Assembly: GCA_041653875.1 (NCBI GenBank)
Contig: JBAZEM010000006.1
Span: 46,585 to 110,584 of the forward strand
Direction of reading: 5' to 3'
Source of the DNA: Kiritimatiellia bacterium
GTDB taxonomy: Bacteria > Verrucomicrobiota > Kiritimatiellia > JAAZAB01
Length of the DNA stretch: 64,000 nucleotides
Below, in pieces: positions 2,534-55,000 of the stretch. A program made the translations under genes and the position numbers. Position 1 is the first letter of the stretch. Every line of letters starts with the position of its first letter. A model generated the notes under the pieces. The model did not search any database. It had not been told where the DNA came from and was given only the letters and a program-made list of their open reading frames with translations.

Positions 2534-4276
2534 CTACTTCACCGGGATGCCATCCGAAGCGCCAAAGCCGCCCTCGAGAACGCTGTGGCTCCCCATCAGG
2601 AAGATGCTCCAATCACCGTTATGGAACACGGCCAGGTCGGATTTGCCGTCGCCATCATAGTCCCCTGAAAGCGGGATGCCACCCGGAGCGCCAAAGCCGC
2701 CCTCGAGAACGCTGCCACTGCCCACCAGGAAGATGTTCCAATACCCGTTGCGGAACACGGCCAGGTCGGACTTGCTGTCGCCATCATAATCGCCAGACAC
2801 CGGGATGCCATCCGGAGCGCCAAAGCCGCCCTCGAGAGCGCTGTGGCTACCCATCAGGAAGATGCTCCAATCACCGTTATGGAACACGGCCAGGTCGGAC
2901 TTGCCGTCACCGTCATAGTCGCCTGATACCGGGATGCCATTCGGAGCGCCAAAGCCGCCCTCGAGAATGCTGTGGCTACCCATCAGGAAGATGCTCCAAT
3001 CACCGTTATGGAACACGGCCAGATCGGATTTGCCGTCGCCATCATAGTCACCTGATACCGGGATGCCATTCGGAGCGCCAAAGCCGCCCTCGAGAACGCT
3101 GTGGCTACCCATCAGGAAGATGCTCCAATCACCGTTATGGAACACGGCCAGGTCGGACTTGCCGTCACCATCATAGTCGCCTGATACCGGGATGCTATTC
3201 GGAGCGCCAAAGCCGCCCTCGAGAACGCTGTGGCTACCCATCAGGAAGATGTTCCAATACCCGTTGCGGAACACGGCCAGATCGGATTTGCCGTCGCCGT
3301 CGTAATCATTAATGGGCTGTTTTTCCGCCTGGCTGGGGACAACGGTGAATATACCCTCGGACGAACTTACGTAGATCTTGCCGTCACGAATCCGGACCGT
3401 TTCCATCCGCTCGTCCGAACGGGCCAGCACCGCATATCCCGCGTAGTTGCCATTGGTCACAAACAGACGCTGCAACTCGCTCGCATCGGTGAACGACGTC
3501 GCGGTAATTACCAGGCGTCCCTTATTGTCCACCACCATGCCACTCGCGCCATCTCCCGCGGATAGCGTTGCCCACGCATGGCCGACCGGGCTCAGCGGGG
3601 CGCCCGCGGGATTGGCAATGGCAGCGGAAACTTCCGCGGCGCTCCAGCGGTAAACTGTCGGATTGCCCGAAGAGACGTAGCCTTCCGCGTAGAAGAGATT
3701 GCTGGACGCGTCGAAAGCGATTGGACCGCTTGCGGCGCCGATGGCGCCGAGATTCACCAGCGGGTTGCTCACCAAGTCACCATTCGCGTTCAGGGCGCTG
3801 TAATAGATCGCGGAGTTATATCCCCCCGCGGCCCAGAAATCGGTCCCGTCACGCGTCTCGAGCCCATATATGTCGCTCAGAATTCCTATGTTCGCCGGTG
3901 CGGACGGGTGGGTCGGATCATATCGGTAGTAGTCGCAGGTATAACGGGTGTATGTTCCGCCGTCGTTGAAGTAGATGCGGCCGCCGATTGCGGTCACCCG
4001 ACTGCCGGAGAACGCGTTCGCGTCCGTGTACAGGAGCGATGCATTGACGCCGTTGTAACGGTAAACGGAGATCCCTAAACCATAGTCCGGACGTCCGGTC
4101 GAGTAGTACAGGTTCGAATCTTCGTCCCAGTCGAACGCCACCAACGTCTCTCCCGCATGCGGATTCGCGTAGAACGTTTGCGCCACGTAATTGCTGCTTC
4201 CGATGAACGCAGCGAACGCATGTTCGCCAAGCGCCGCCAGGCACACGCCAATAAACAACCTCAACATTAATTTCAT
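2534..4276 (-). CDS. Secreted FG-GAP/VCBS-type repeat protein (about 7 tandem 42-aa repeats, DYDGDGKSDLAVF...)
   Basis: Signal peptide MKLMLRLFIGVCLAALGEHAFA follows an AAGGAG RBS. The C-terminal half consists of near-identical 42-aa FG-GAP-like repeats encoded by 126-bp DNA tandem repeats. Confidence 0.7.
   Translation of the reverse strand: MKLMLRLFIGVCLAALGEHAFAAFIGSSNYVAQTFYANPHAGETLVAFDWDEDSNLYYSTGRPDYGLGISVYRYNGVNASLLYTDANAFSGSRVTAIGGRIYFNDGGTYTRYTCDYYRYDPTHPSAPANIGILSDIYGLETRDGTDFWAAGGYNSAIYYSALNANGDLVSNPLVNLGAIGAASGPIAFDASSNLFYAEGYVSSGNPTVYRWSAAEVSAAIANPAGAPLSPVGHAWATLSAGDGASGMVVDNKGRLVITATSFTDASELQRLFVTNGNYAGYAVLARSDERMETVRIRDGKIYVSSSEGIFTVVPSQAEKQPINDYDGDGKSDLAVFRNGYWNIFLMGSHSVLEGGFGAPNSIPVSGDYDGDGKSDLAVFHNGDWSIFLMGSHSVLEGGFGAPNGIPVSGDYDGDGKSDLAVFHNGDWSIFLMGSHSILEGGFGAPNGIPVSGDYDGDGKSDLAVFHNGDWSIFLMGSHSALEGGFGAPDGIPVSGDYDGDSKSDLAVFRNGYWNIFLVGSGSVLEGGFGAPGGIPLSGDYDGDGKSDLAVFHNGDWSIFLMGSHSVLEGGFGASDGIPVK
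2545..3300. repeat. 126-bp tandem repeat x about 6-7 (coding; FG-GAP repeats)
   Basis: Recurrence of ccatccgaagcgccaaagccgccctcgagaacgctgtggct... every 126 bp with few substitutions. Confidence 0.8.
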
Positions 4277-4482
4277 TTTCATCGCTCCTTTATCGCAGTT
4301 TTTTCCTTGTTCGCGCCTCATTCCAGTCGGGACAAAGGCGTCGTTGTGTTCACTTCTATGGTTTGCATGCTTCCTGTTTATTGGTCTATGTCACAGCGCC
4401 TCCTTTTCGGTCCAGATCGAATGGCGCGAGGTAATATGGCCATCCTATCCCCGCGCGCGTGCCACGAGAAACTTGAGTCCGG

Positions 4483-6741
4483 TCACTGGCTTTCCACCTT
4501 CTTCATCCATATCGCTGTCACGGCATCGAGATCGAAGCCCGACTTGTTGTTACTCCTTGTCGCGGCTCCCGTCTCCTCGTTGTGATAGACGAGATCACCA
4601 TCGTTATCGATGAGCCAGCGGCTCCCTGTGGACTGGATGCGTACGTAACGGATCCACTCCAGTCCCACCGCCGAGATGTCGAAACTGTCGCCGCCCGACA
4701 CGGCCGGGTCGGTGGGATCCGGGGAATAGCCATCGCTCATGACGGGATTGACGCCGGCAAAACCCGAATTGTAGCAGTAGGGATGACGGAGGTTGAGAGC
4801 GCCGGTGTCGGGATCGTAACGCGGTGAGAAGTCGATCTTGAATTGCCGCCAGTTTATCCCGTCCTGGCTGACAGACACCACGGCCGGCTCCATAAAACGG
4901 GTTTCGGGATCGGGGACTCCGGCCGCGTCGCAAACATAAAAGACGTTCTCGAAGACCGTAAAATCGGCGCCCGGCCCGTCCCACACCACGTTGTCCACAA
5001 ACTCCAGCGTGATCGTGCCGCCGTAGGGGGCTGATGCGCCGCCGTCATCATTGATGGCGGCCCCCAGCGAGACAACATCCGTTGAGCCCCACACGAGACC
5101 CTTCCCGCGGGGAGCGCCGAGGACAATCTGCGGGAGTTCAGCGGACCTGAATGCGTTCGGATGAAGCAGATTCTTGCTCACGACTCTGTCTGCGAACGGT
5201 TCTGTTTCAGGCGGCAGCTTTGCGAAGATCTTAGGCGACGCCGCGGACGTTGCCATCGTTCCGTTACTTTCGAGGAATGCGGCGTAGTAGTGGTTGCCTT
5301 CGCCCACATCGCCGTCAAGATACGAGGTTTCGGGTCCGCAGTATACCGTTGAGCCATCTGACGGCGTCAACGGGGTTCCTGTTGAACTCCGTACAATCCG
5401 GACGCTGAGATCCCCGCTCATCGCTGTCAGAACCCAGCTCAGGGCGACACTGTTGCGGCTCAGCAACGCCTCGAATTTGGATATTGAGGCGGAGAGACGG
5501 GGCAAGACCTCCAGCGCTAATTGCACGTTATCCAGTTGGCCCTCTGCGTCCTGCACCCCGACGCTGATTTCGTAAGTGCCGGATTCTGAGGGCGTTCCCG
5601 AGCAGAGACCAGCTGCGGAGAACTCGATACCAGGTGGGAGAGAACCGCTGATGCCCCAGACGTAGGGCTCCACGCCGCCGGTTGCCTGGAAGGCGAGTTC
5701 GAACGGCTCCGACTCGCGAATGGACGATTGCGGAATATCCAGTATGCTCAGCTCGGTCCTGCAGTGGAGCACGAGTTCCTTCGTAACGTGAAGCTGCGCA
5801 TCGCTCAACCAGAAGACCAGCGGGATATCAACCTTCGGGGAAGAAGCATCGATCTTCCCTTGAAGTTTCCCTGTTTGAGAATCGAGAGCCAGCGCCCCGA
5901 TCTCCTCGAGGTTCCCTGCCGCGCTCCACGCATACGGTGGAACCCCGCCGGCCGCTTGAAGCTGGAAGACGTAATCTTCGCCGGGAAAAGCGGCGGGCAG
6001 ACTCGCGGTCACGATCTCGAGACTTTGCTCCGGCTGAAACGTCAGGACGTATTCCGCCACGTCCTTTGCGCCCCGCCGGTCGGTTACCTGAAGGAAGAAA
6101 TCCACCGTAGTTGGTTCGGTCGGAATTCCGCTGAGTTTGCCGGACTGGCTGTCGAACGAGAGCGACCCCGGCAGTTTGCCGCCCACGACGCTCCACAGGT
6201 AAGGCTGAAAGCCGCTCGTGGCCAGGAATTGGACATCATAGAGTTCGCCAACCCGGCCCGGTGGAAGCGATCCGGTTGTGATATAAACCAGGTTTGTGCC
6301 GCCGCCGGTCGTTGGTATCCATTTCCCTTGCCGATTTATGACGCCGAACTTTTCCCGTATGAGTCTCTCCTTGAGCGCAGCGATATCTTCGGAGGTGACT
6401 TCTTCGTCGGTTAGGTCTTCGGCTTCCTCGTTTTCGTTCAGATTGGCGGCCGCGCCGAAAAGCTCCGGAGCAGAGTTTGTGCTTCCGGGTTTGTCCATAT
6501 GATTGCTATCCGCAAGCCTTTCGCTGTCGCTTATGGCGGCGGCAGATGTCCTGGAGCCATGAGGATAGACGCGCCCGCCGCGGTTGTGGTTACGGGCGCC
6601 CCCTCTCTTGGCGGCAAGGGACCCCGCCTCACGGTTGGACTTTGCTGCGAAAAAACAGACAAGTCCAATTGAACAGGCGATGACCACAAATACTCCCAGA
6701 TAAACCCTTGCCAGGCGTTTTATAAACAGGCCAATCTGCAT
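4483..6741 (-). CDS. Membrane-anchored cell-surface protein with 3 putative Ig (cadherin/dystroglycan-like) domains, an FN3-like region and a C-terminal about 250-aa domain of unknown function
   Basis: Start chosen at ATG 6741 (MQIGLFIKRLARVYLGVFVVIACSIGLVCFF signal anchor). Repeated motifs YLWSVVGGKLPGSLSFDSQSGKLSG, YAWSAAGNLEEIGALALDSQTGKLQG and YVWGISGSLPPGIEFSAAGLCSG. Sits downstream of a cobalamin riboswitch. Confidence 0.65.
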   Translation of the reverse strand: MQIGLFIKRLARVYLGVFVVIACSIGLVCFFAAKSNREAGSLAAKRGGARNHNRGGRVYPHGSRTSAAAISDSERLADSNHMDKPGSTNSAPELFGAAANLNENEEAEDLTDEEVTSEDIAALKERLIREKFGVINRQGKWIPTTGGGTNLVYITTGSLPPGRVGELYDVQFLATSGFQPYLWSVVGGKLPGSLSFDSQSGKLSGIPTEPTTVDFFLQVTDRRGAKDVAEYVLTFQPEQSLEIVTASLPAAFPGEDYVFQLQAAGGVPPYAWSAAGNLEEIGALALDSQTGKLQGKIDASSPKVDIPLVFWLSDAQLHVTKELVLHCRTELSILDIPQSSIRESEPFELAFQATGGVEPYVWGISGSLPPGIEFSAAGLCSGTPSESGTYEISVGVQDAEGQLDNVQLALEVLPRLSASISKFEALLSRNSVALSWVLTAMSGDLSVRIVRSSTGTPLTPSDGSTVYCGPETSYLDGDVGEGNHYYAAFLESNGTMATSAASPKIFAKLPPETEPFADRVVSKNLLHPNAFRSAELPQIVLGAPRGKGLVWGSTDVVSLGAAINDDGGASAPYGGTITLEFVDNVVWDGPGADFTVFENVFYVCDAAGVPDPETRFMEPAVVSVSQDGINWRQFKIDFSPRYDPDTGALNLRHPYCYNSGFAGVNPVMSDGYSPDPTDPAVSGGDSFDISAVGLEWIRYVRIQSTGSRWLIDNDGDLVYHNEETGAATRSNNKSGFDLDAVTAIWMKKVESQ

Positions 6742-6812
6742 CTTTTCGCTCGCAGTCTTATGAAACCGTTGTCTTACAAAAAAATGCCGGCACTTCTCTT
6801 TCACGAGGGCAA

Positions 6813-7062
6813 TAAAAAAGCCTCCAGACTCCCGCCAAAAGAGTCTGAAGGCTTTGAATACAGCACGATCCCTCATTCTCCTTTCAAGCGAAGGAGCCAC
6901 AACGAGCATGAAAAGAAACGTCTCCTGACTTCCGGCTTCAAGCCTACTCCTTCACCTTCCCGTTTGCCTTGCGGCACCCGGTGGTCATTGAAGTTTCGTA
7001 GCCGGTCACAGTGGCGCGACCGTATCCGATTCTCACGGATTTCCGTACTCTCTTCACAAACA
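6813..7062 (-). ncRNA. Cobalamin (B12) riboswitch with intrinsic-terminator expression platform
   Basis: The minus strand reads ...GGAAATCCGTGAGAATCGGATACGGTCGCGCCACTGTGACCGGCTACGAAAC...GGGTGCC...AAACGGGAAGGTGAAGG...CAGGAGACG. This matches remembered RF00174 core blocks (GGUGAGAAUCC, GCC-CUGU-A, GGGAAGG). It is followed by the hairpin GCCTTCAGACTC..GAGTCTGGAGGC plus TTTTTT (6813-6853). A paralogous element lies at 19882-20150. Confidence 0.6.
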
Positions 7063-7379
7063 AACTTTTAATTCCAAAGAACTGACAAGACTAATAACAC
7101 AACCATGCAAGCTGTCAATAAGATTTATAAAGCAATTTTTCAAAAGCGTTGTCTATATTGCCGAGCCATGCTTGTTGACGATATTAAAAAAACACCTTGG
7201 CCAGCTTTAGAATACCCTGGCTCCAATACGCGCAGGGCCAGAATTACCGGGGTCGTTCCGGTAAAGACACGATCCGCTTGCCGTGGCCGGCTTCGTCAAG
7301 CACGGCCTGAAAATCCGAGCGCGGTGTTCCGAATTGCTCTGCGCCGACATTGAACGTGTCGTCCTGAATCCCTGGCGGG

Positions 7380-8021
7380 TCAGGGCAATGTTTTTGCCAA
7401 GAAAGCATAAAAACCTTTTTCGTTCGCGTGGCGGATGATAGTTAATCCAGCCTTGGCAAAAAGCGAGCGCATACCAGTTTCATCCGGCATGCGGTCGTGT
7501 TTGACCGCCATGTGAGAATGCGCATGACGATGGTTCAAAGCTTCCGGCGAATCGAAATGCGCCAGCAGCAGCCAGCCGCCCTTTTTCAGGACGGCGGACA
7601 TGGCGCGCATGGCGCGGAGTTTGTCCTGAAAATGAGGGAAACACGAAAAGCAGAATATTCCGTTGCATGATTTGTCCGGAAGAGGCAGCGCGTTTACATC
7701 GGCCACATGGAACCTGATGCGCGGATCGGGATGCAGGCGGCGGTTGACTTCGATCATTTTATCGGCGCAATCGACTTCATGGATTCTGCCCGCCGGCCCC
7801 AATCGCCGGAGAATGCGCGGCACAAGCACGCCGCTTCCACAGCCGATGTCCAGAATAATGTCGTTTTTTTTAAGGGACGCGAGCGCGAACAAGCGTCGGA
7901 ACTTGCGCTCGAAGCGCCGCCGCCGTTTGGCGCCGGGCGTTTTATACCACATATCCATCCATTTTTCGGCATGGGCGTTGAAAAACGCTTTTTGTCTTTT
8001 AATTGCTGTGTGTTGATGCAT
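7380..8021 (-). CDS. Class I SAM-dependent methyltransferase
   Basis: [11 protein letters not shown] motif I plus downstream MTase motifs. It overlaps the 3' end of the znuB-like gene by 23 nt, so it is in the same operon. Confidence 0.6.
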
Positions 8022-8847
8022 GGTTTTCGACCTTCGGCCGGTTGCGCCGCACCCGGGGCGACAGTAAGAATGCCAGCAGATACATGCCGGACGAAATCAG
8101 CACTACACTGCCGCCGGTGGGAATATCCCAGATATAGGATGCCAACAAACCGGCAAAACAAGCGCCGATGCCGAAGATGGCCGCCAGAATCAGAATAACC
8201 GGCAGACGAAACGACAGTTGGCAGGCGGTATTGGCCGGATTGACCAACAAGGCAAAAATCAGCAGGCCGCCAATCATATCCAGGGAGGCGCCGACCGTCA
8301 TGGCGCCCAGCAAGATGATTCCGTAATAGATCGGCGCTTCCGGAATGCCGCAGGCCGCGGCGAGTTCGCGGTTGAAAAGCGCGGCCACGATTTCTTTGTA
8401 AAACAACGATAGAAAAATCGTCAATCCGAGAAATACTCCGGCCAGAATCCAGACTTGCCCTCCCGTCACCGTGAGCAGACTGCCCCACATCAGATTCAAG
8501 GCGTCCGTTTTTGGCCCGGGTATTTTCGCCATCAGGATGAGCGAAATTCCCATGGTGGCCGAAAATATGATGCTCAGCACAACATTGGACGAAGCCTGCG
8601 CTTTTTCCGCCACCGGTCCCACGGCCAAACCTGCCACGGCGCAGGCAATCATGGCCCAGACCAGCGGGGATTGCCCGGCTAACAACCCTATGATCGCTCC
8701 CAGAAACGCCGCATGGGACATGCATATCCCCAGAAAGGGGATTTGCATCAAAGTCAGAAAGACTCCGATAATCGCTATGCTCCCGCCGCCGAAAACACAG
8801 GCGGCCATTGCATGGCGGAAATATTCCTCGTGCAACAATGCCATCAT
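7999..8847 (-). CDS. Metal ABC transporter permease (ABC-3, ZnuB/MntB-like)
   Basis: Multi-TM protein with the ABC-3 signature. ATGA overlap with the upstream ATPase stop. Confidence 0.75.
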   Translation of the reverse strand: MMALLHEEYFRHAMAACVFGGGSIAIIGVFLTLMQIPFLGICMSHAAFLGAIIGLLAGQSPLVWAMIACAVAGLAVGPVAEKAQASSNVVLSIIFSATMGISLILMAKIPGPKTDALNLMWGSLLTVTGGQVWILAGVFLGLTIFLSLFYKEIVAALFNRELAAACGIPEAPIYYGIILLGAMTVGASLDMIGGLLIFALLVNPANTACQLSFRLPVILILAAIFGIGACFAGLLASYIWDIPTGGSVVLISSGMYLLAFLLSPRVRRNRPKVENHASTHSN

Positions 8848-9599
8848 GGCTGTCCGCCTTTCCGCATTGCCTGCCAATCATGCCGGTCACCGTCAAATTG
8901 TTTTTGTCCGCCGGCCAACACGATTGTCCGTTGGCAGTTGGCGGGCACGGCGGACGCATGATGCGTAATCATCAAAACTGCAAAGCGCTCCTGAAGGTGC
9001 AGTCGCTCAAGTAATTGCAGGCAGTCCTGCCGGGCCGTCGTGGAAAGGTGGGAGGAAAACTCGTCCAGCAGAAGGAGATCAGGCTGCTGACACATGGCCC
9101 GGGCAATTTGAACCTTTTGCCTTTCGCCGCCTGAAAGTTGGCCGATGGGGCGAGCCAGCAAATGAAAAATTCCGGCATCGTGTGCGGCCCGATCCACGAG
9201 GGCCCAGTCGTTGGAATTTAACCGGTGTCCCAGCCCGGCGCGCGCGCAACGGCCGATGGCAATTACATCGCGTACGCTGACCGGCATGGTTTCGTCAAAG
9301 GCAAGCGTCTGGGGCACATAGCCGATCCGCCGCCGCAAGGCGCGCCGGTTCCGCCACGAAGCCTGCTGCCCGAACAGACCAATAATCCCCGAGGTTGCGG
9401 GGATCAGGCCAAGGATGGATCGCAGCAGCGTTGTTTTACCCGCGCCGTTATCGCCCAGAACCACCGCAAATTCCCCGCGATTAACAGCCAGCGATACATT
9501 AGACAATATGCGCCGTCCATGGAGATGAACGGTGAGATTGGAAATATTCAGGCAATTATTCATATGCTCAAATTGCAGTTTAAGGCCGGCTGACGACAT
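8844..9599 (-). CDS. Metal ABC transporter ATP-binding protein (ZnuC-like)
   Basis: Walker A GDNGAGKTTLL, LSGGERQ signature, Walker B LLLLDE. Confidence 0.8.
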   Translation of the reverse strand: MSSAGLKLQFEHMNNCLNISNLTVHLHGRRILSNVSLAVNRGEFAVVLGDNGAGKTTLLRSILGLIPATSGIIGLFGQQASWRNRRALRRRIGYVPQTLAFDETMPVSVRDVIAIGRCARAGLGHRLNSNDWALVDRAAHDAGIFHLLARPIGQLSGGERQKVQIARAMCQQPDLLLLDEFSSHLSTTARQDCLQLLERLHLQERFAVLMITHHASAVPANCQRTIVLAGGQKQFDGDRHDWQAMRKGGQP

Positions 9600-9653
9600 T
9601 CTAACATTCTGCAGAATGTTAGAATGTCATAAAAATAAATTGCCGGTCAATTT

Positions 9654-10496
9654 TCATGGTTCAGGATAATTATAGTTGCACACTGTCATAACATTCTTTT
9701 TTAACGTGGTTTCGTAGCTGATCCGGCCGTTCGCATCGGGTTCCGGAAAGTTGCCGAGCACAACCAGCGGCAATCCCAGTTCGCGCGCCAGAGTCTTGCC
9801 GACTTTGCCGCTGCTTTGCCGATTATCCACGACCAGGCGCGCCCGTGCCCGGCGCGCTTGTTGCATAACCTTCTGAAGATTGCGCAACGAGACATCGTCG
9901 TCACGCTGGAATTCCGCTGCCACGCCGAGTCCCACCCAGGCGACCCAGTCGGCGTTCATGGTTGAACATACTGCCGGCAAAGCCCGGATTTTTTTCGAAG
10001 CCGGCTGCAATTCCGCTTCCAGTGCGTCAATCCGTTTCCAATACGCTGTCAAATTTGCGCGGAATAATGCGGCGTGCTTTGGGAACTTGCTTGTCAGGAT
10101 CGTGGCCATCTGTTCTGCTGCCTGTTTTTGGATTGCTGGAATCATCCAATTGCCTGGGATGACGACGGCGCTCAGCGGCGGGCGGGATCGGTCGTTTTCA
10201 AACACCGCCAGGAATTTTTCCGTGCCGTGGCCAAGGATAAGAACCGCCCCGCGTATTTTTTCGATATTACGGGGGCTGAGCTCAAAATGTCCCGGGCACA
10301 TGCCCCAAGGCACGATCGTTTCTGTCTGGTATAAACCGCCGGCCAGAGTTTCAACCAGCCCGCTTAAATGCGTTGTGGTGCATACCACAATGGGTTGTGT
10401 TGCCGGAACCGGTTCCTTGGCCATGGCCGCCGTTAGACAGGCGGCCATGGTAAGCATGGATAGTCCTGTTTTAGATGCGCATGCGTAAGCCGACAT
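9654..10496 (-). CDS. Metal ABC transporter substrate-binding protein (TroA/ZnuA-like)
   Basis: Signal peptide. TroA-like fold motifs (PGHFELSP, VLILGHG). Confidence 0.65.
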   Translation of the reverse strand: MSAYACASKTGLSMLTMAACLTAAMAKEPVPATQPIVVCTTTHLSGLVETLAGGLYQTETIVPWGMCPGHFELSPRNIEKIRGAVLILGHGTEKFLAVFENDRSRPPLSAVVIPGNWMIPAIQKQAAEQMATILTSKFPKHAALFRANLTAYWKRIDALEAELQPASKKIRALPAVCSTMNADWVAWVGLGVAAEFQRDDDVSLRNLQKVMQQARRARARLVVDNRQSSGKVGKTLARELGLPLVVLGNFPEPDANGRISYETTLKKNVMTVCNYNYPEP

Positions 10497-12441
10497 AACC
10501 TGTTATTCCCGGCATTGGATATCCCGGAATCTGTTCGTAATCCTTGTCGAACAGATTGTCAATACCACCGAAGACTTCCGCATATTTAACGACGGGATAA
10601 GCCGCCTTGAGATTTACCACGTAATAATTGGCCACTTTCCCAATGGCGCCGCCTGCCAGAATGTCGCTGTCATACAAATCGGCAACATACTGGACTTCCG
10701 CCGAAAGACGGAATTTTTTTATAGTGTATTCCGCGATGAAGCTCAACTCATTTTCCGGAACGCCCTGGCGGTTGGTATTCGGATTGCCGGTCTTGGCGTC
10801 GTCAATATCCGTATAGGTGTAGGAAGCGTTCAAACGGCACGGTTCGATCGGCCGGTATTCGACCGCCACTTCGACGCCGCGCGTGTCGAAGGCGCCGGAG
10901 TTCTGGTTGATGGTTTGGGGCGGTGGTGCGGGGTTCGGAACCGTTTGAATCATATTATGCGCCTGCTGATAAAACGGAGCGATTTCCACGCTGGCCACCG
11001 AGCATATTTTCTGGATCAAACCAACGTCGTAACCCCATATATCTTCGGGTTCCAACTTCTCGTCGTGGGCAGGGAAAAGATATAACTCGCTGAACCGCGG
11101 CTGGCGGAAACCGCGCGCCGCTTTGGCGCGCAATATGGTGGACGCGGTCACATGGTTTAACAAGCCGACCGTCGGCAGGAATTCGACGCTGTCACCGCAG
11201 TTGTCGTAATGCCCGCGCAAGCCCAGTGTGTTGACCCACTGGCGCCAGGTCAACTCGTTAAAGACATACACGTCGTTATTCTGCTGAATAAAACTGCCAA
11301 AATCCATGTATTTGGCCGGCATGTTCTTTTTGGCCCAAGCCACCCAGTCATCCTGGGGCCTGGCCCACAAATACTGGTATTCGTAGCCGACCGTGGGCGC
11401 GCATTTCGTGTCGTCGTTTTTAAAAACGGTTCGCGAATACTCGGCTTTGCCCCCGAATGTCTGGTCCTTTGAATGCCAATAATCTGAAATCGTCGGCATG
11501 TTGAACTTGTGGTCCCCGAAAGTGTTATAAGCTATGAACGAAAGCCGCGAATCGTCCCATTGGCCGGTCAGATCGACATTCCACGAGCCGCGCTTGTATA
11601 GCCGGCAATCGTTGTTGGTGTAGAGATTGTTAATTGGCCCCGGATCATGGCCAAGGTCGGCGAAATACTGGCCGGCAGCTTCCAACCGCCAGACATCGGT
11701 TAAATCCTCTCCGAGCCGTAGTGACCCGAAGTCACCGCTGTATTCGCCGTTGGGGCGGTAACCGTCGGTTTGTTTGTGGTCATACGCGGCGTAATAATCG
11801 AAACCTTGGATTTTCCCGCCGTGGCGCGCTAATCCATGCAGAGTGCCGTAACTGCCGTATTGCAGTGAGCCGTCGGTCTCAAAGCCTGGGTCCAGCCTGC
11901 GGCGCGTAATGATGTTAATCACGCCTCCCATGGCGTCCGAGCCGTAAAGCACCGATTCCGGGCCGCGCAACACTTCGATTCTATCCACATTGGCCAAGGG
12001 CAAGGTCTGCGAGACCGTGCAGCCGAAAAGCAACATTTTTTCGGGGCGTCCGTCAATCAGGGTCTGGATTCTGCGCATGTTCGATCCCAGCCCGCGAATA
12101 CTGACATCCTGCCGGCCGTAGATGGCGTCCTTGCGGATATAAACGCTCGGTTCCGCGACGATGGCGTCCATAACGTAGTCGGTGGTCAAAGCTTCGATTT
12201 GATCCCGATCAATCACGCTCACCGCCGAGGTCACGTTTTTCACCTTATTGGTCAGGCGCGAGCCCAGGACTATGATTTCGTCCACCCGCAAGTATGCGGG
12301 AGGTTCTTGCGCTATGCCTGCCGACGAAGCCTCGTTGGTTGCCGCCGGTGAAATGGCGTTGCTCGACACCTGTGCTCCGGCAACGCCGCCGAAGAGCATC
12401 GTGCCCGCGCAGATCAGTGCCCACTGGTTTCTTCTTTGCAT
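10471..12441 (-). CDS. TonB-dependent outer-membrane receptor
   Basis: Signal peptide, TonB box DEIIVLGSR, plug and barrel motifs. Start taken at MQRRNQWALICAG. Confidence 0.75.
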   Translation of the reverse strand: MQRRNQWALICAGTMLFGGVAGAQVSSNAISPAATNEASSAGIAQEPPAYLRVDEIIVLGSRLTNKVKNVTSAVSVIDRDQIEALTTDYVMDAIVAEPSVYIRKDAIYGRQDVSIRGLGSNMRRIQTLIDGRPEKMLLFGCTVSQTLPLANVDRIEVLRGPESVLYGSDAMGGVINIITRRRLDPGFETDGSLQYGSYGTLHGLARHGGKIQGFDYYAAYDHKQTDGYRPNGEYSGDFGSLRLGEDLTDVWRLEAAGQYFADLGHDPGPINNLYTNNDCRLYKRGSWNVDLTGQWDDSRLSFIAYNTFGDHKFNMPTISDYWHSKDQTFGGKAEYSRTVFKNDDTKCAPTVGYEYQYLWARPQDDWVAWAKKNMPAKYMDFGSFIQQNNDVYVFNELTWRQWVNTLGLRGHYDNCGDSVEFLPTVGLLNHVTASTILRAKAARGFRQPRFSELYLFPAHDEKLEPEDIWGYDVGLIQKICSVASVEIAPFYQQAHNMIQTVPNPAPPPQTINQNSGAFDTRGVEVAVEYRPIEPCRLNASYTYTDIDDAKTGNPNTNRQGVPENELSFIAEYTIKKFRLSAEVQYVADLYDSDILAGGAIGKVANYYVVNLKAAYPVVKYAEVFGGIDNLFDKDYEQIPGYPMPGITGYVGLRMRI

Positions 12442-12519
12442 TTTCCGAATTCCTTTCCTGTTGTGTTGTTGAGGCGGCAACCATTGTTTGGCAATATGGC
12501 ATCCGGCCGTCTTGGTCGA

Positions 12520-12996: not shown

Positions 12997-13761
12997 TCAG
13001 TTTTTTAGCTGGAAGCGGAAGATAATCAGAGATTCGGATGTTACCGGCTTGCCGTTTCTCCGGCCGGGGCTAAAACGCGCGCGTCTTATGGCTTTGAGAG
13101 CGGCTTGGTCCAGTTCGCGATGGCCGCTGGACTGAACTATATCTGTCCCATCAACCCGTCCATCCGCGCCAACCTGCGCGCGCACCGTAACATTGCCTTG
13201 CTCGCCGCGACGCCGCGCGCCCAACGGATAGACGGGGCGAACACCCGCCGACATCCGGGGCAACCCCTGAATGCCTTTGCTTAATCCATCGGCGTCGGAT
13301 TGCGGCGCGGCGTCATCTCCCGATTGGGTGGAAGACATGCCCGAAGAAGCATTATCCGCCAATTTGGCCTGCGTGAGTTCAGATGGAGTTTCGGCGGTCT
13401 CCTCCGGCTGTTCCGGCGCCGGCCGGGATTCCGAGAGTGCGGCGGATGGATGGGGAAGATCAACCTGAGCCGGCGCTTCTTTTTCCGCCTCAGGCGCCGT
13501 ATAAATCGGCGCTTCAACGGGGGGCGCCGCTTGCGCCTGCATTGCGGCAATCCCGGCGGGAGGCGGAGCGAGGAATGTCATTGCCAGGCTGGATGCGCCC
13601 TGTTGAAAGATTGGTTGCGCCCGGATAGAGCGGCCGCCCCACAGGCCCGCCATGGATAGCAACAGGCCGACATGAAACAACAGCGCGAGCAACAGGCCCG
13701 CGATATAATCGCGCGGATTCGATCCGCATGCGGAACCGTTACACGAATCCCGACGGTTCAT
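12997..13761 (-). CDS. tonB: TonB energy transducer
   Basis: N-terminal TM anchor, Pro/Ala/Glu-rich spacer, C-terminal TonB domain (VRPVYPLGARRRGEQGNVTVRAQVGADGRV...). Start set at MNRRDS (13761). Confidence 0.65.
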   Translation of the reverse strand: MNRRDSCNGSACGSNPRDYIAGLLLALLFHVGLLLSMAGLWGGRSIRAQPIFQQGASSLAMTFLAPPPAGIAAMQAQAAPPVEAPIYTAPEAEKEAPAQVDLPHPSAALSESRPAPEQPEETAETPSELTQAKLADNASSGMSSTQSGDDAAPQSDADGLSKGIQGLPRMSAGVRPVYPLGARRRGEQGNVTVRAQVGADGRVDGTDIVQSSGHRELDQAALKAIRRARFSPGRRNGKPVTSESLIIFRFQLKN

Positions 13762-13826
13762 ATTTAAGGGTGTAGCGGCGGTTCGCAAGAACCGCGCCGG
13801 CTTAAAAAAATTACTGCGCGCTAAAT

Positions 13827-14228
13827 TCACGGTTTTTTCACCTCGAAGGCCACCGCGGCGATGCCGGCCTCCTTCAGCCGCGACAACAGCTCGATGCCGA
13901 CGCCCAGGTCGGCGCCGCGGTCGCCGCCGATCAGCACGGCGCAGGAACCGCTGCGGGCGGCCGCGGCGGTTCTTGCAACGCAAGTTTCCAAGTCGCAGAT
14001 TTCCCGATCCAGGCTGATGGTATTGTCGGCGGCAAGCGTAATACGGATACTGCGTTTTTGACTGCCGGCGTCGGCCACGCCCGCCGGCAAGGCCACTTTC
14101 AGGCCTTTGGAGAGGGTCATGGAAATGGCCGCGTAGATGAAAAACACCAGGATGACGAAGGCAATATCGATCAGATTGACCAACTCAATGCGCGCCTTCT
14201 TGTTTTCGTAGCCGGTGGGTATCCGCAT
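13827..14228 (-). CDS. exbD: ExbD/TolR biopolymer transport protein
   Basis: KKARIELVNLIDIAFVILVFFI motif typical of ExbD. Confidence 0.7.
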   Translation of the reverse strand: MRIPTGYENKKARIELVNLIDIAFVILVFFIYAAISMTLSKGLKVALPAGVADAGSQKRSIRITLAADNTISLDREICDLETCVARTAAAARSGSCAVLIGGDRGADLGVGIELLSRLKEAGIAAVAFEVKKP

Positions 14229-14862
14229 ATTCCAGTCCTTTCTTGTAAGCCACTTCGAACTGGGCGACAAACTGCTCCAATCGCCGCGCTTCGCGCTGGA
14301 TTTTGCTGACCAGCGCGTTATAGGGCACCAGGGTCACCATGGCGATAATAAGTCCGGCGGCCGTGGCTATCAGCGCTTCCGCCAGACCGGCGATTACCGC
14401 GCCCGGATCCTGAATCTCCACGGCGCCCAGAATGCGGAAGGAGCGGATAATCCCCAGCACCGTGCCGAGAATGCCCAGGAGCGGCGCCAGGGTGATGACG
14501 GTATCCAAGGCCGTCAGGCCGTGTTTCATGCGGGCGATTTCATCGCCGGCGGCCACCTCAAGACTGCCTTCCAGGCCGTAGGCATGGTGCTTTAACCCCG
14601 CCGCCAGGATGCGCGTCGCGGCGAAGGGATGGAGGCGCGCTATTCGGATGGCTTGATCGAATTCGCCGCATTCGGTTTCTTGCATAAGCTGGTCCAGCCA
14701 TTCCGCGCGTTGCGCGCTCATGCGCTGGCGCCACCAGAATAGCAGGCGCTCGATCGTGATCGTCGCCGAGAGCAACGAACAGATCATGAGCGGCCACATC
14801 ACCGGGCCGCCCTTGAGAATGACCGACCAGACCGCGCCAGAACCTTCAATGTGCATCATCAT
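14185..14862 (-). CDS. exbB: ExbB/MotA/TolQ proton channel
   Basis: Three TM helices. MotA_ExbB-type sequence. Confidence 0.7.
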   Translation of the reverse strand: MMMHIEGSGAVWSVILKGGPVMWPLMICSLLSATITIERLLFWWRQRMSAQRAEWLDQLMQETECGEFDQAIRIARLHPFAATRILAAGLKHHAYGLEGSLEVAAGDEIARMKHGLTALDTVITLAPLLGILGTVLGIIRSFRILGAVEIQDPGAVIAGLAEALIATAAGLIIAMVTLVPYNALVSKIQREARRLEQFVAQFEVAYKKGLEYADTHRLRKQEGAH

Positions 14863-14865
14863 TTT

Positions 14866-15245
14866 TTAGTCCTTGATACGTAGGAATTTCCCGCCATAGG
14901 CGGATCCGCCTCCGGCAGACAAAACATAGCGGTTCTAACGAACCGCAACTACACCAAAGCGGTGTAGTTGCCGTTCGATAGAACGGCAAAGTCGCGGCCT
15001 TTGGCCGCCTAACTCGATGTTAAGGAAATTCAATCTGATGTAGAGCCGGTTTTATACCGGCTATCCTATGCCGAAGATAGCCGACGTAAAGTCGGCTCTA
15101 CATGAAAAAGCCGCCCCGCTGCGGGGCCTAACTTGATGTATAGGAAATCCAAACCCGCCGGGTCAGGGGACCCGGCCTACAATACTGTAGGCCCGGTGCC
15201 CTCACCGGGCGTTATGAAAAAGCTGCCCCGCTGCGGGGCCTAACT
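14866..15245. repeat. BIME-like mosaic repeat array (hairpin modules separated by conserved linker CTAACTYGATGTAnAGGAAATYCAA)
   Basis: Three linker copies at about 15012, 15135 and 15238. Hairpin modules such as GTAGAGCCGG..CCGGCTCTAC and GCCCCGCTGCGGGGC recur at 32292-32470, 48335-48545 (inverted), 62745-63360 and partly at 30205-30310. Confidence 0.75.
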
Positions 15246-19881: not shown

Positions 19882-20150
19882 AAAAAAACCTCCGATACGC
19901 TCGTAGGCGGATATCGAAGGTTTGCGATTGCGGAACCTCATCCTCTCCACCTGCGAGAGAGCGAATCCGGCCTGGCCGGATTCCGATGAGCGTGCAAAGC
20001 AACGTCTTCTGACTTCCGGGTGCTATCCTACTTTCCCCGCCTTCTCCCAACCTGTGCTGGGATGGCTTATGGGATTTCGTCCCCGGTTACAGCGGCGCAA
20101 CCGCGTCCGATTTTCACGGACTTCCGTACGCCTTCCACGCTTGTAAAAAC
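19882..20150 (-). ncRNA. Cobalamin (B12) riboswitch controlling btuF-TBDR-btuCD
   Basis: The minus strand reads GTGAAAATCGGACGCGGTTGCGCCGCTGTAACCGGGGACGAAATCCC...GCCATCCCAGCACAGGTTGGGAGAAGGCGGGG...CAGAAGACG. This is homologous to the element at 6813-7062. It ends in a hairpin plus TTTTTTT abutting the btuF ATG. The context is the classic B12-importer regulon. Confidence 0.7.
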
Positions 20151-50053: not shown

Positions 50054-51946
50054 ATGGCCTATATCTATTTCAAATGCTCGTGCGGCAAATCGCTGGCCAT
50101 CGATGAGCGCGGTGTTGGCCGAATTATCGAGTGCGTCGATTGCGGCAAGCGGGTGACGGTCCCGGAATGGGAATATGCGTTTACCTGTTCGGAGTGCGAC
50201 GCAACGTTTGGCGCCGCTTCCGGCATCGCCGATGATTGCGCGCGGTGCGTTATTTGCGGGGACAAGTTTATCGTTCCCAGGAATAACGCTCCGTCGCAAA
50301 ACGATCTTGAAGGCGCTTCGATCGGCGAACAAACCGATCGTCCCGTAAACGAAGTCAAACTCCCGGCTTCGGGCGCTGCGCCGAATTCTCCGTTGCCGCC
50401 GGCGGCTTCATCCCGGAAATTGGTTTTCCCCGCGATCGACTGGGCGCGCCTTCAAGTCATGCTCTATCGCTTAACGTCCGTGGTTGTCGTGGTATTCATT
50501 GGGGTGACAGGGTTAAGCTGGTTTGTTTCCAAAGTCTTCCAATCGAACGAAGGACTATCCCGTGAAATCGAACGCAGTTCGAAACAAGGCGACGTGGCGG
50601 CGTCCGTTGCCGTTCTGGAGTCGGCCATCAAGCAATACCCGTTGGCGTTCGCCGGCGGGCGCCGCGCCAGGAAGTTGTTGGCGGATAACAAGACGATCGT
50701 TCAGGATACGACCAACTTGTCCGCCGCGCTCGTGCTGGCCAGGAAAGATACGAATGGCGAGTCCGCCGCCGAGCGCCTGGCCAAAGCCATAAAGAAATAT
50801 CGTCGGGCAGCCAACCGCGCCGAAGCCGAAACACTGGAAAAGAATATCCAGGCCCAGCTGAACGATTCGTGGGTGCTTTCCCTGGCGCTGAGAAACGGCC
50901 GGGCGACGGCCGATGTTCCCGCCCGGATCGAATTATTGAAAAAGGCCCTGACGGAGTGTCCTTGCGCCACCAACCGCGCCGACGCGGAAGCGATGATTGC
51001 CGCCGCCGGACAGCAATTACGGGAAACTGCCGGACTTGACCAGGCCATCCAACACGCCCGGAAGGAAGGCGATCCCTCTGAGAACGCCAAACTGCTTGCC
51101 GATGCGCTGGCCAAATATCCCCAAGCGACAAATCGGGAAGCCGCGTTGGGATTGTTGAAAAATTTACAGACGCAGGCAGGTGGGCAAGTCAAGGATCCCC
51201 TCTTGCAGGCGATTGTCAGCGCCAGGGCGCAAGACACCTTTGCCGCCGCCATCCGGGTGCTCACCGAGGCTTTGAAAATCAACAAAGATTCTCCCTATCG
51301 GGTCGAGGCGGAGCAGGTGTTGGCCGTTTATCAGAAACAATCGCTCGAAAGGACGACGGAACAAAAATCGGCCGTGACGGATTACATCGAAGAAGCCACG
51401 GATGCGTTGGCAAGCAGCGGATATGTCTTCCTGCCGCCGAACAAGGCCTTGGCCGGCGCCGGCGGAGTGTTGAGCTTATACGATAGTCCCTTGGCCAATA
51501 AAATTATCGCGATGAATTATGGCGTTGAGGTCAGACTTCGTAAAATCGCGGGCAAAAAAAATAAAGACGGCGCCGGCGGTCCGCCCCCGGCGGATTCCCT
51601 GCATTATGTTCCACGCCTGATTCTTTCGGCGAAAAACGGGGAAATTCCTCGGGGAAATATCGTTGTCATCGAGTATTACCTCGCCGATTATCAGGACAAG
51701 GCCGCCGGGCAAAGAGCGAAGGTCGAGCGCATCACGTTCCCGAAGATATCCAAAGGGCAGGCCCTGGCGGTGGATTGTCGGGGGATTGAGTGCAGTCCGC
51801 CGGTCAAAGGCGCCGCGTCAAAAAAAGAGGCCGGCAATAAATTGTACGGCATCATTGTCAGCGTGTACGGCAAAGGCAGTGAATTGCTCCTGCAGAAATG
51901 TTCAATGGCCAAACTGGTCAAGGAATGCAGTGTGCAGACCTATTGA
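50054..51946 (+). CDS. Zinc-ribbon (two CxxC pairs x2) transmembrane protein with about 45-aa helical repeats (KYPxATNR motif)
   Basis: N-terminus CSCG..CVDCG and CSEC..CVICG. One TM helix. Four repeats containing K(K)YxxA(T/A)NRxEA. Confidence 0.5.
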   Translation: MAYIYFKCSCGKSLAIDERGVGRIIECVDCGKRVTVPEWEYAFTCSECDATFGAASGIADDCARCVICGDKFIVPRNNAPSQNDLEGASIGEQTDRPVNEVKLPASGAAPNSPLPPAASSRKLVFPAIDWARLQVMLYRLTSVVVVVFIGVTGLSWFVSKVFQSNEGLSREIERSSKQGDVAASVAVLESAIKQYPLAFAGGRRARKLLADNKTIVQDTTNLSAALVLARKDTNGESAAERLAKAIKKYRRAANRAEAETLEKNIQAQLNDSWVLSLALRNGRATADVPARIELLKKALTECPCATNRADAEAMIAAAGQQLRETAGLDQAIQHARKEGDPSENAKLLADALAKYPQATNREAALGLLKNLQTQAGGQVKDPLLQAIVSARAQDTFAAAIRVLTEALKINKDSPYRVEAEQVLAVYQKQSLERTTEQKSAVTDYIEEATDALASSGYVFLPPNKALAGAGGVLSLYDSPLANKIIAMNYGVEVRLRKIAGKKNKDGAGGPPPADSLHYVPRLILSAKNGEIPRGNIVVIEYYLADYQDKAAGQRAKVERITFPKISKGQALAVDCRGIECSPPVKGAASKKEAGNKLYGIIVSVYGKGSELLLQKCSMAKLVKECSVQTY

Positions 51947-52014
51947 ACCGGCAAATGAATGGGCCATTCGTTTGTGAAATATGCGGACATTTTGGAATAT
52001 ACGAGGAGACAACG

Positions 52015-55000
52015 ATGAGTAGGCTGATCGTCAGGATGTTATACTCAACGGTTCATCGTTGGAACTGTGCCATGCGCGTCACCTTGCATTTTTCACTCGC
52101 ATTCACTTGGCGGCATTGCGTTGTCCTTGTCTGTATTATGGCCGTTGTGGCGGTTGTCGCCAAGGCCGATACGCACTATGTGTCCCTCGCGGGAACGTCA
52201 GCCTCCCCTTATACGAACTGGGCGGAGGCGGCTAATTCGATCCAGGCGGCCGTGAACGTTGCCGGCGACGGGGACGAAGTTGTGGTGGCTGACGGGGACT
52301 ACATCCTTTCCGAACAAATCGTCATCGCCAAGGGAATCACGGTCCGGAGCGATCTCGGGCGTTCGATGTGTCGGATTGACGGCGACAATGTGTGCCGATG
52401 TATTTGGCTTGCCCACAGTAACGCCGTAGTCAGCGGGTTTACCATTACGCGGGGCTTGGCCGGCCAAGGGGGCCAATCTGACGGCGGTGGGGGGATTTAT
52501 GTTGACCGGGCCGGCACGGTGCGCGACTGCAGCATTGCCGATAATATTTGCTCCAATATCTACGGCGTAATGTGTGGCGGAGGAATATATCTTTCGGGTG
52601 GAGGGACAATCCAAAATTGCCTTGTGTCAGGCAATATAGCCGACAGTAGCGTAGCATCCGAGGGCGGCGGCATTTACATGTCTGGCGGTCTTGTCGAAAA
52701 TTGCCTTGTTATCGGCAATATTAATCGGCCGACAGGTTCGGGATGGGGCGGCGGCATTTATCTTGAAACGGGCATCGCGAATCATTGCACGATCGTGAAT
52801 AACAGCGGCGTATATTCGGGTGGCGGCGTATATCTGAAGTCCGGCGTCGTCGTCAATTCCATCGTTCTTTACAACCAGGCGACAGGATATCAGGAGTGTC
52901 GTATAGTTGGCGGCGGGTCGGTTTCATTCACCTGTTGCACCTGGTATGATGGAATGTCATACGATGCCGGCAATGTGTATAATAAAGACCCGCTTTTTGT
53001 CGATTATACGAACGGCGACTTCCATCTGCAGGAGGGCTCCCCATGCATCGATGCTGGGGCGACAACGGATGTTGTGACGGTGGACTACGAGTATGCGACC
53101 CGTCCTTTGGACGGCAATGTGGACGGGAATTTTCGCGTGGATATGGGCGCATTCGAATACCGTGTGACAGACCTGCGTTGCAGTGTGGCGGTGAACACCA
53201 ACCAGGGCTTCGATCCATTGCCGGTGCGATGCGAGTGCTTTACGGGCGGGACAAATCTCGATGGCCTGTATTACCGGTGGGACTTCGATAACGACGGCCA
53301 TATCGATCTTGCCGGCCCGGATTTGGCGGTGGTGACGAATACCTACACCAATTGGGGCTGGAAGACGATCACGGTGATGGTGAGCAATGTGGCGGGAGAA
53401 GCAGCGTCAGCGGCATTGACGAATGCTGTCAAGGTCGGTCATCCGTTGGTCTATGTCTCCCCCTCCGGCTCGAGTGTGTTTCCTTATACGAACTGGACGA
53501 TGGCCGCAACGAACCTGAATTCGATTGACGATCTGTTGGTGGATGGAACTGAGGTTGTCGTAACGAACGGCCATTATGACCTTTCTCAGGAATTTTCCCT
53601 GAATTTTGCCGTCACTTTAAGGAGCGTGAACGGCTGGAGGCAAACGACCTTGGATGGCAACGATATAACCCGTTGCGTTCGGCTTGCGCACTCTGGCGCC
53701 GTGGTTGACGGATTTACGCTGACCCGCGGTTCCGCTTTAAGTGGCGGCGGCGCCTATCTCAACGGCGGTACGGTGCGGAACTGCTGGATTCACGGCAATC
53801 GCGCTCGCAACGGTGGAATTTCCGGCGGCGGCGGCGTCTGTATGTACGGCGGAAGATTGGCAAACTCTTTGATTACCGGCAACAGTGCGGCCTCAAGTCC
53901 GGTCAACGAAGCCAATACGCGCGGCGGCGGCGTTTGGCTGAATAATGGCGGCATTGTCGAGTTCTGCACTATTATGGCTAATTCCATTTCATCCGGGCGA
54001 GGAGGTGGCGGGTTGTACGGAGGCGGTTCAGCATCCTCCGGGGGCACCCTCTACAATTGCATAATCTGGGGAAACACGGCGCCGACCGGCGCGAACATCG
54101 GTCAATGGAATAACTGCATCGGCGCTTATTACACGTGTTCGACTCTGACAGGTTATATGGCGAGCATGGAGGGGAATATCACAAACAATCCGTGCCTGAG
54201 CGCCGACTGGCATCTTCTGGCCGGGTCGCCGTGCATCAATGCGGGAACGAACCTTTCCACTGCGCCTATGGACATGGAAGGGATATCGAGGGACCTGGCC
54301 GGAAATCCGGACATGGGTTCCTTTGAATACAACGGAACGACCTATCCGCCAATGATTACGGATCATCCTCTGTCGCAGGCCAAAAACCCGGGGTCAACGG
54401 CAACCTTCAGTGTGGCGGTGGTGGGGATCGCGCCGCTGTATTACCAATGGCAGAAAAACGGCGTGAACATTGCATCGGCGAACAGCACGAACTATATGAT
54501 CAATCCGGTAATGGACTGGAGTGCGGGGGGATACCGTTGTCTGGTAAGCAACGCGGCAGGTGTTGTGGAGAGCGCGGTGGCGGTGCTGAACGTGAACGCG
54601 CCGGTGGCGATCGCGACTCAGCCGCAATCGCGCGCGAACAATCCGGGTTCGTCGGCGAGCTTCACTGTGGCGGCGACGGGGACCGCGCCGCTGTGTTACC
54701 AGTGGCAGAAAAACGGCGCGAACATTGAATTGGCGAGCAATACGATCTACATGATCGATTCGGTGGCGGCTGGTGACGCGGGGGCGTACCTTTGCCTGGT
54801 AAGCAACGTAGTCGGGGTGGTGGCAAGCGCGGTGGCGGTGCTGAGCGTAAACGCGCCGGTGGCGATCGCGACTCAGCCGCAATCGCGCGCGAACAATCCG
54901 GGTTCGTCGGCAACCTTCACTGTGGCGGCGACGGGGACCGCGCCGCTGTATTACCAGTGGCAGAAAAACGGCACGAACATCGAATCGGCAAGCAATACGA

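Follow-up and report, generated by a model that had tools for sequence, protein, structure and literature searches.

The window analysed here, a stretch of 64,000 nucleotides (nt) from a Kiritimatiellia bacterium (contig JBAZEM010000006.1, assembly GCA_041653875.1), carries on its minus strand a cobalamin riboswitch followed by two genes: gene 1 (4483-6741), a btuH-like gene of 752 amino acids (aa) plus stop delimited by calling of open reading frames (ORFs) and ortholog alignment, and gene 2 (2534-4321), which encodes 595 aa. Judged by fold and profile comparison, the C-terminal domain of the gene 1 product is a distant homolog of the B12-binding domain of Bacteroides BtuH.

The riboswitch aptamer was located by Rfam cmscan at 6898-7083 (-), matching RF00174 over its full length (model 1-189) with 67.3 bits and E 1.8e-14 at a gathering score of 31.5; rescanning of this segment gave E 1.4e-15. 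The original prediction, which had read a B12 riboswitch and an intrinsic terminator at 6813-7062, is thereby confirmed, apart from the aptamer 5' end, which lies about 20 nt further upstream. The expression platform (6808-6855, minus strand; terminator scan and minimum free energy (MFE) fold) consists of the terminator stem, a 5-nt loop and a U-tract: a hairpin at 6817-6855 of 17 bp including 7 G-C pairs, followed by TTTTTTATT. It starts 43 nt past the aptamer, lies 67 nt ahead of the ATG at 6741 and dominates both the MFE and the centroid folds of the leader 6800-7090. In analogy to the standard OFF-switch design we infer that plentiful cobamide would bind the aptamer and let the 17-bp terminator form, stopping transcription before the genes, and that scarcity of cobamide would allow read-through into genes 1 and 2. 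At 7090-7118 (-) a promoter-like pair was read by eye, TTGACA (7118-7113) and, after a 16-nt spacer, TATTAG (7096-7091), which might tentatively serve as a promoter starting the transcript close to the aptamer 5' end; the pair is absent from a consensus promoter scan demanding T as sixth base of the -10 hexamer. A second RF00174 riboswitch of the window (19982-20149, minus strand; Rfam, 69.2 bits, full-length match) precedes the btuFBCD genes; the two aptamers have the family core in common. The gene 1 aptamer is furthermore almost identical to the RSa aptamer of a 92%-identical ortholog (locus L001), where tandem aptamers, RSa and RSb, precede the gene (L001:5240-5841, plus strand); ahead of gene 1 in the window there is a single one. 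The RSb aptamer contains an insertion of about 85 nt, as does the aptamer of L012.

Gene 1 was read from the ATG at 6741 down to its stop codon at 4483. With 808 aa the longest ORF opens at 6909, i.e. inside the aptamer, and the N-termini of the orthologs (alignment of 28) favour the ATG at 6741. The product is 100% identical to P0001 from a Kiritimatiellia metagenome-assembled genome (MAG), whose public record comprises 808 aa, the same length as the longest window ORF starting within the aptamer. In residues 1-23 (6673-6741) an n-region KRLAR is combined with a hydrophobic stretch and a lipobox-like motif, V-I-A-C, an arrangement compatible with a signal/lipoprotein peptide as well as with a signal anchor; the cysteine is kept in 20 of 25 full-length Kiritimatiellia sequences (the window protein and P0002-P0025, alignment A1), and hydrophobic residues run on past Cys23. 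A low-complexity, weakly conserved linker follows (residues 24-148, 6298-6672), marked by variable and gap-rich alignment columns, and then three He_PIG Ig-like repeats with a recurring A.GG.PPY.W motif (residues 149-420, 5482-6297). Two stretches exceed the threshold of the Pfam 'putative Ig domain' He_PIG (PF05345, E 3.8e-15), in line with the Ig domains proposed originally, and the third repeat was assigned by the repeat pattern in the ortholog alignment. Residues 421-504 (5230-5481) probably form an Fn3-like beta domain, as suggested by the sequence pattern; no Pfam match was obtained for this region. Residues 505-752 (4486-5229), by far the best-conserved portion of the protein in the ortholog alignment, represent the putative cobamide-binding domain of BtuH type.

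For this C-terminal domain AlphaFold2 yielded a model with a predicted local distance difference test (pLDDT) score of 95.6, and comparison of the model with solved structures indicated a globular domain with the BtuH fold. The two best matches were exactly both solved BtuH domains, 8BLW_B of BtuG1 (score 13.8; 166 residues; 22%) and 7BIZ_B of BtuH2 (score 12.5; 158 residues; 23%), and the next best, generic CBM32/discoidin jelly-rolls, scored 8.5 or less. Foldseek also put 8BLW_B first. For BtuG1, homology of its C-terminal H-domain to BtuH2 has been reported (PMC10404256).

Profile comparison pointed in the same direction. A hidden Markov model (HMM) built from 40 domain sequences of related loci (A3) gave a single match among the PDB sequences at E <= 10, namely residues 432-497 of 8BLW_B (E 0.0023). 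As counterpart, 65 non-redundant Bacteroides H-domains were collected from gut-metagenome loci; querying with a 66-aa BtuG1 fragment had returned six short fragments, one of them on a frameshift-ridden contig, and the clean BtuG1/BtuH1 genes came from a metagenome scan. Over 101 columns, alignment of the domain family with these H-domains by hhalign reached Prob 96.5% at E 7.8e-10, and under relaxed settings the two were colinear across 219 columns; for comparison, the negative controls (BtuG propeller and gene 2 domain) gave Prob 0.1-0.2%. Reciprocally, among 4,593 ORFs the Bacteroides HMM recognised at least 30 family ORFs, the match falling on the C-terminal domain every time. The original prediction of a non-homologous protein with a fold unlike those of BtuG and BtuH is not supported, as both families are connected at sequence level by the profile HMM and by hhalign and the architecture copies that of BtuH2. 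An undescribed corrinoid binder whose fold is unrelated to BtuG/BtuH would fit the lack of any Pfam, NCBIfam or BLAST-level match to a B12-binding protein, but is contradicted by the hhalign result with the Bacteroides H-domains and appears scarcely credible to us.

The C-terminal domain belongs to no Pfam family (window protein and 61 relatives scanned), and Pfam and NCBIfam hold no model for BtuH2, the BtuG1 H-domain or BtuH1 either. An assignment to DUF4465/BtuJ was rejected, as none of 61 family members matched PF14717 at E <= 10.

Residues of the presumed binding site were compared in BtuH2 numbering, anchored on Q333, N399, F401, H476, Y510, W511 and W577. In the confidently aligned half, D393, N399, F401 and E406 of BtuH2 correspond to D593, N599, F601 and E618 of the window protein, and these four do not vary in any alignment of the domain family; the motifs SGGDSFD (682-688) and GFDLDA (735-740) of the domain are likewise invariant. 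N399 and F401 are B12 contacts in BtuH2 (PMC8941943), and N399 and E406 are part of a two-metal site holding the nucleotide-loop phosphate (PMC13616437); D393 is listed for one reason, namely its invariance in 66 Bacteroides H-domains. E584 of BtuH2 pairs with an invariant D737 in a stretch that is aligned with low confidence only, and Q333, H476, Y510, W511 and W577 sit in BtuH2-specific insertions or in low-confidence alignment.

In order to follow the association with riboswitches, relatives were collected by a pattern scan with one genome per species, which resulted in 80 loci, of which L001-L078 were covered by riboswitch scans (RF00174 or RF01482 at the Rfam gathering threshold). The loci were chosen by the protein alone, so that no bias toward riboswitches was introduced. 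A same-strand RF00174 or RF01482 element was found upstream in 54 of the 78 loci, which come from more than 10 phyla. As 7 of the 24 riboswitch-negative loci have under 700 nt of DNA ahead of the gene, the proportion becomes 54/71 (76%). All eleven (11/11) Kiritimatiellia orthologs with upstream sequence possess a riboswitch, at a distance of at most about 200 nt from the ORF. In many riboswitch loci btuB adjoins the btuH-like gene; in Myxococcota, Binatia, Calditrichota, KSB1, Ignavibacteria-like bacteria and Cytophagia the order is usually riboswitch, btuB, H-domain gene or riboswitch, H-domain gene, btuB. Riboswitch control of the btuH-like gene family is thus conserved, and the role in corrinoid acquisition that had been proposed is therefore well founded. 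At E <= 0.001 an exhaustive profile search extended the family to 4,975 cluster representatives (2,906 at E <= 1e-10), in which the domain is nearly always C-terminal; behind cobalamin riboswitches, and often adjoining btuB, the family occurs in at least ten phyla from soils, sediments and anaerobic reactors. One locus of Planctomycetales, L019, contains a second H-domain ORF (13142-15085, plus strand), which is matched by the Bacteroides BtuH HMM with E 2e-11, a far better value than the members of the new family attain, and which could be a bridging form or a canonical BtuH outside Bacteroidota.

These data also bear on the possibility that a generic jelly-roll, galactose-binding-like or of CBM32 type, forms the C-terminal domain of a glycan-binding adhesin or surface protein, with a merely regulatory link to B12, for instance through a B12-dependent lifestyle switch. 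Database sources do label relatives as 'cell surface protein', and dockerin or Big_2 domains are present in some of the relatives. Furthermore, the sole curated match in the NCBIfam scan is the Leptospira family LIC_13355 (NF033170; 44.8 bits, E 8.8e-12, domain residues 13-164), which has been examined only as a host-component-binding protein, with B12 unmentioned (PMC11891782). Its score lies far under the cut-off of 120 bits, so that the domain is related to this family and not a member of it. However, of 61 members just 2 were matched by Pfam F5_F8_type_C (PF00754), with E 0.12, so that CBM32 membership is indicated neither by Pfam nor by the best structural match; the counterparts of the BtuH phosphate/metal-site residues N399 and E406 are invariant in the window family, riboswitches precede the gene in 54 of 78 loci, and btuB adjoins it in many. 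We consequently regard an adhesin with a merely regulatory B12 link as improbable. Leptospira LIC_13355 itself may, by its sequence relationship to the domain, be a B12 binder.

Gene 2, whose likely start is MKMKL at 4282, was defined by ORF calling and Pfam and encodes a signal peptide, an N-domain of about 300 aa (3314-4213, minus strand; no known family in the family searches) and six 43-aa FG-GAP-like repeats. It lies directly downstream of the btuH-like gene in 12 of 12 Kiritimatiellia loci. With an iterated HMM, 31 of the first 37 loci (L001-L023, L027, L028, L030-L033, L035-L037) were found to have the N-domain as same-strand neighbour of the btuH-like gene, a pairing which spans Verrucomicrobiales, Planctomycetales, Omnitrophota, other lineages of the Planctomycetes-Verrucomicrobia-Chlamydiae (PVC) group and Nitrospirota and includes loci lacking a riboswitch; a riboswitch-less Verrucomicrobiales subclade, including Brevifollis gellanilyticus, still has the pair of gene 2 and btuH-like gene. 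Several loci place the N-domain gene between riboswitch and btuH-like gene. In ten other loci the genes between riboswitch and H-domain gene gave no Pfam families, and several of these intervening genes are homologs of the gene 2 N-domain. The gene 2 homolog of the Kiritimatiellia-type locus L003 (ORF 3065-4735) has its own RF00174 at 2834-3001 (+); this locus exhibits a further RF00174 ahead of the btuH-like gene and a third one, on the opposite strand, ahead of btuF/C/D. Between genes 1 and 2 of the window neither a terminator nor a relic riboswitch at E <= 1 was found, so that co-transcription of both genes is likely. The gene 2 protein, a conserved partner, probably works together with the gene 1 protein.

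The N-domain of gene 2 has no relative in Pfam, NCBIfam or PDB. Its identification as BtuG, i.e. a DUF5074/YncE-type seven-bladed propeller, was rejected, as hhalign against 44 BtuG propellers gave Prob 5.7% and Pfam and PDB yielded no matches. The N-domain contains a recurring blade-like 'FD..GNLYY' motif, the repeat test being weak and not significant (Prob 13.6%), and a single-sequence structure model reached a pLDDT of 40.5.

From 20149 down to 2534 all genes lie on the minus strand in the order riboswitch 2, btuF, btuB, btuC and btuD (19950-15202, downstream of the second riboswitch), exbB with exbD, tonB, a second TonB-dependent receptor, a ZnuA-type binding protein, an ATP-binding cassette (ABC) ATPase with permease, a methyltransferase, riboswitch 1, the 752-aa gene and the 595-aa gene. 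The btuH-like gene thus stands at the end of a 16-kb B12/TonB uptake cluster, and the original wording, 'rather than a transporter', is on that account no more than half correct. The second TonB-dependent receptor and the ZnuA-type ABC transporter, followed by the methyltransferase, occupy 7754-12480 (-) between the two riboswitch units. On the plus strand an overlapping pair, an ArsP_1-type permease and a DUF1980 protein (325-2216), adjoins the operon, and a 1,505-aa protein with several eukaryote-type Ig domains (Ig_3 E 7e-37, I-set E 2e-34) is encoded at 51898-56415 (+). The remaining genes of the window are housekeeping genes.

Alternatively, the gene 1 protein could be related to BtuH and still have another job in the B12 regulon, binding cobinamide, another tetrapyrrole or cobalt, or docking and scaffolding the gene 2 protein as the true binder. 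The adjoining metal-type (ZnuA) ABC system and second TonB receptor would suit such a function, as would the tight pairing with the gene 2 N-domain in 31 loci, the private riboswitch of the gene 2 homolog in L003, the paired loci devoid of a riboswitch and the absence or unalignability of the BtuH2 insertions bearing H476 and Y510/W511. On the other hand, what is conserved of the pocket belongs to the phosphate/metal site for the nucleotide loop, which in BtuH2 is specific to complete cobamides (PMC8941943, PMC13616437). Furthermore, btuB co-occurs with the domain in phyla without gene 2, which argues for the domain itself as the B12-related element. We therefore consider a different job within the regulon unlikely, though less so than the adhesin.

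In our assessment it is likely that the window contains a cobamide-repressed operon of two genes, of which gene 1 encodes a stalked envelope protein with a BtuH-like capture tip handing cobamide to BtuB. The protein would be anchored in the envelope by a signal anchor or by the lipoprotein Cys23, and the flexible linker of about 125 aa, the three He_PIG domains and the Fn3-like domain would constitute a stalk presenting the C-terminal domain. By analogy with BtuH2, this domain would capture cobamide via the nucleotide-loop phosphate/metal site, with N599, E618 and D593 conserved, and the captured cobamide would be passed toward the TonB-dependent BtuB encoded nearby. Binding of cobamide, display on a stalk, hand-off to BtuB and cooperation with gene 2 are all inferred.

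Several observations weigh against this assignment. The similarity to BtuH is remote and lacks a pairwise or phmmer match: neither the narrower A2 profile nor phmmer with one Bacteroidia family member retrieved any match from the PDB sequences. The criterion for BtuH homologs used in PMC8941943 (pairwise BLAST E <= 0.03 to BT_1488, BT_1490 or BT_1956) was likewise not reached in these phmmer and A2 searches of PDB, a direct BLAST against the three not being included. At the binding site, D522, S582, Q333, W577, H476 and Y510/W511 of BtuH2 are without secure counterpart in the window domain, BtuH2 being about 30 residues longer with about 60 inserted residues where the corrin contacts H476 and Y510/W511 lie. 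Concerning regulation, 17 loci with ample upstream DNA show no riboswitch within 6 kb, among them the Verrucomicrobiales subclade formed by L013, L018, L027, L028 and L030-L033. The lipobox was identified by eye, and the predicted envelope location may be the outer surface or the periplasm. The source, finally, is an uncultured MAG. As the protein is BtuH-related at the level of fold and profile yet shows no BLAST-level similarity, we classify it, on these comparisons, as a new and very divergent BtuH-type protein and not as a categorically new binder.

A wider proposal combines two parts: that BtuH represents a single branch within a large, unnamed superfamily for cobamide capture linked to riboswitches (about 5,000 cluster representatives from PVC, Myxococcota, Binatia, Calditrichota, Thermodesulfobacteriota and others), and that its PVC branch is obligately paired with the gene 2 domain as a new cobamide-binding or hand-off component in the role of BtuG. 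Taken together, both parts are conceivable, but we are more inclined to doubt than to accept them.

BtuH-type capture has so far been described as an adaptation of gut Bacteroidota. The BtuH fold was reported to be without recognisable structural homologs, and its homologs were assigned mostly to Bacteroidota plus three Firmicutes (PMC8941943 and a review of September 2026, PMC13616437). Our data suggest a spread of this type of capture device over many more phyla than hitherto described. Four points appear to be unreported: how broad the family is, that it lacks a curated model, that it has a conserved partner, and that it may be connected to Leptospira LIC_13355. If binding is confirmed, thousands of proteins annotated as 'Ig domain-containing', 'cell surface' or 'hypothetical' would be re-annotated, surface or extracellular scavenging of cobamides would extend well past the gut, and a minimal, insertion-free BtuH pocket would become available for comparison. 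The conserved gene 2 protein and a possible B12 role of the LIC_13355 lipoprotein family are further leads.

Among known systems, the closest in architecture is BtuH2 of Bacteroides thetaiotaomicron (BT_1956, 7BIZ), a lipoprotein whose C-terminal binding domain is preceded by three PKD Ig-like domains; the window protein shares its plan of anchor, Ig-like stalk and C-terminal domain, the last being a putative binding domain (PMC8941943). BtuH2 likewise originates from a B12 uptake locus controlled by a cobalamin riboswitch, and its D393, N399, F401 and E406 are conserved in the window family, whereas BLAST-level similarity between both proteins is missing. The stalk is built of PKD domains in BtuH2 and of He_PIG and Fn3-like domains in the window protein, which unlike BtuH2 contains a long disordered linker. 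The binding domain comprises 248 aa in the window protein versus about 275 in BtuH2 and does without the H476 and Y510/W511 insertions; the partner is gene 2 instead of BtuG, and the phylum Kiritimatiellia (PVC) instead of Bacteroidota. In BtuG1/BtuGH (BT_1490, 8BLW chain B) the H-domain is fused to a seven-bladed BtuG propeller capping BtuB, in contrast to the Ig-like stalk carrying the window domain (PMC10404256). Comparable to the putative binder of the window, BtuJ1 and BtuJ2 (DUF4465, PF14717) are secreted or surface beta-jelly-roll B12 binders encoded in riboswitch loci, and B12 binders of this BtuJ/DUF4465 type are known from Verrucomicrobiota and Planctomycetota (PMC13398666).

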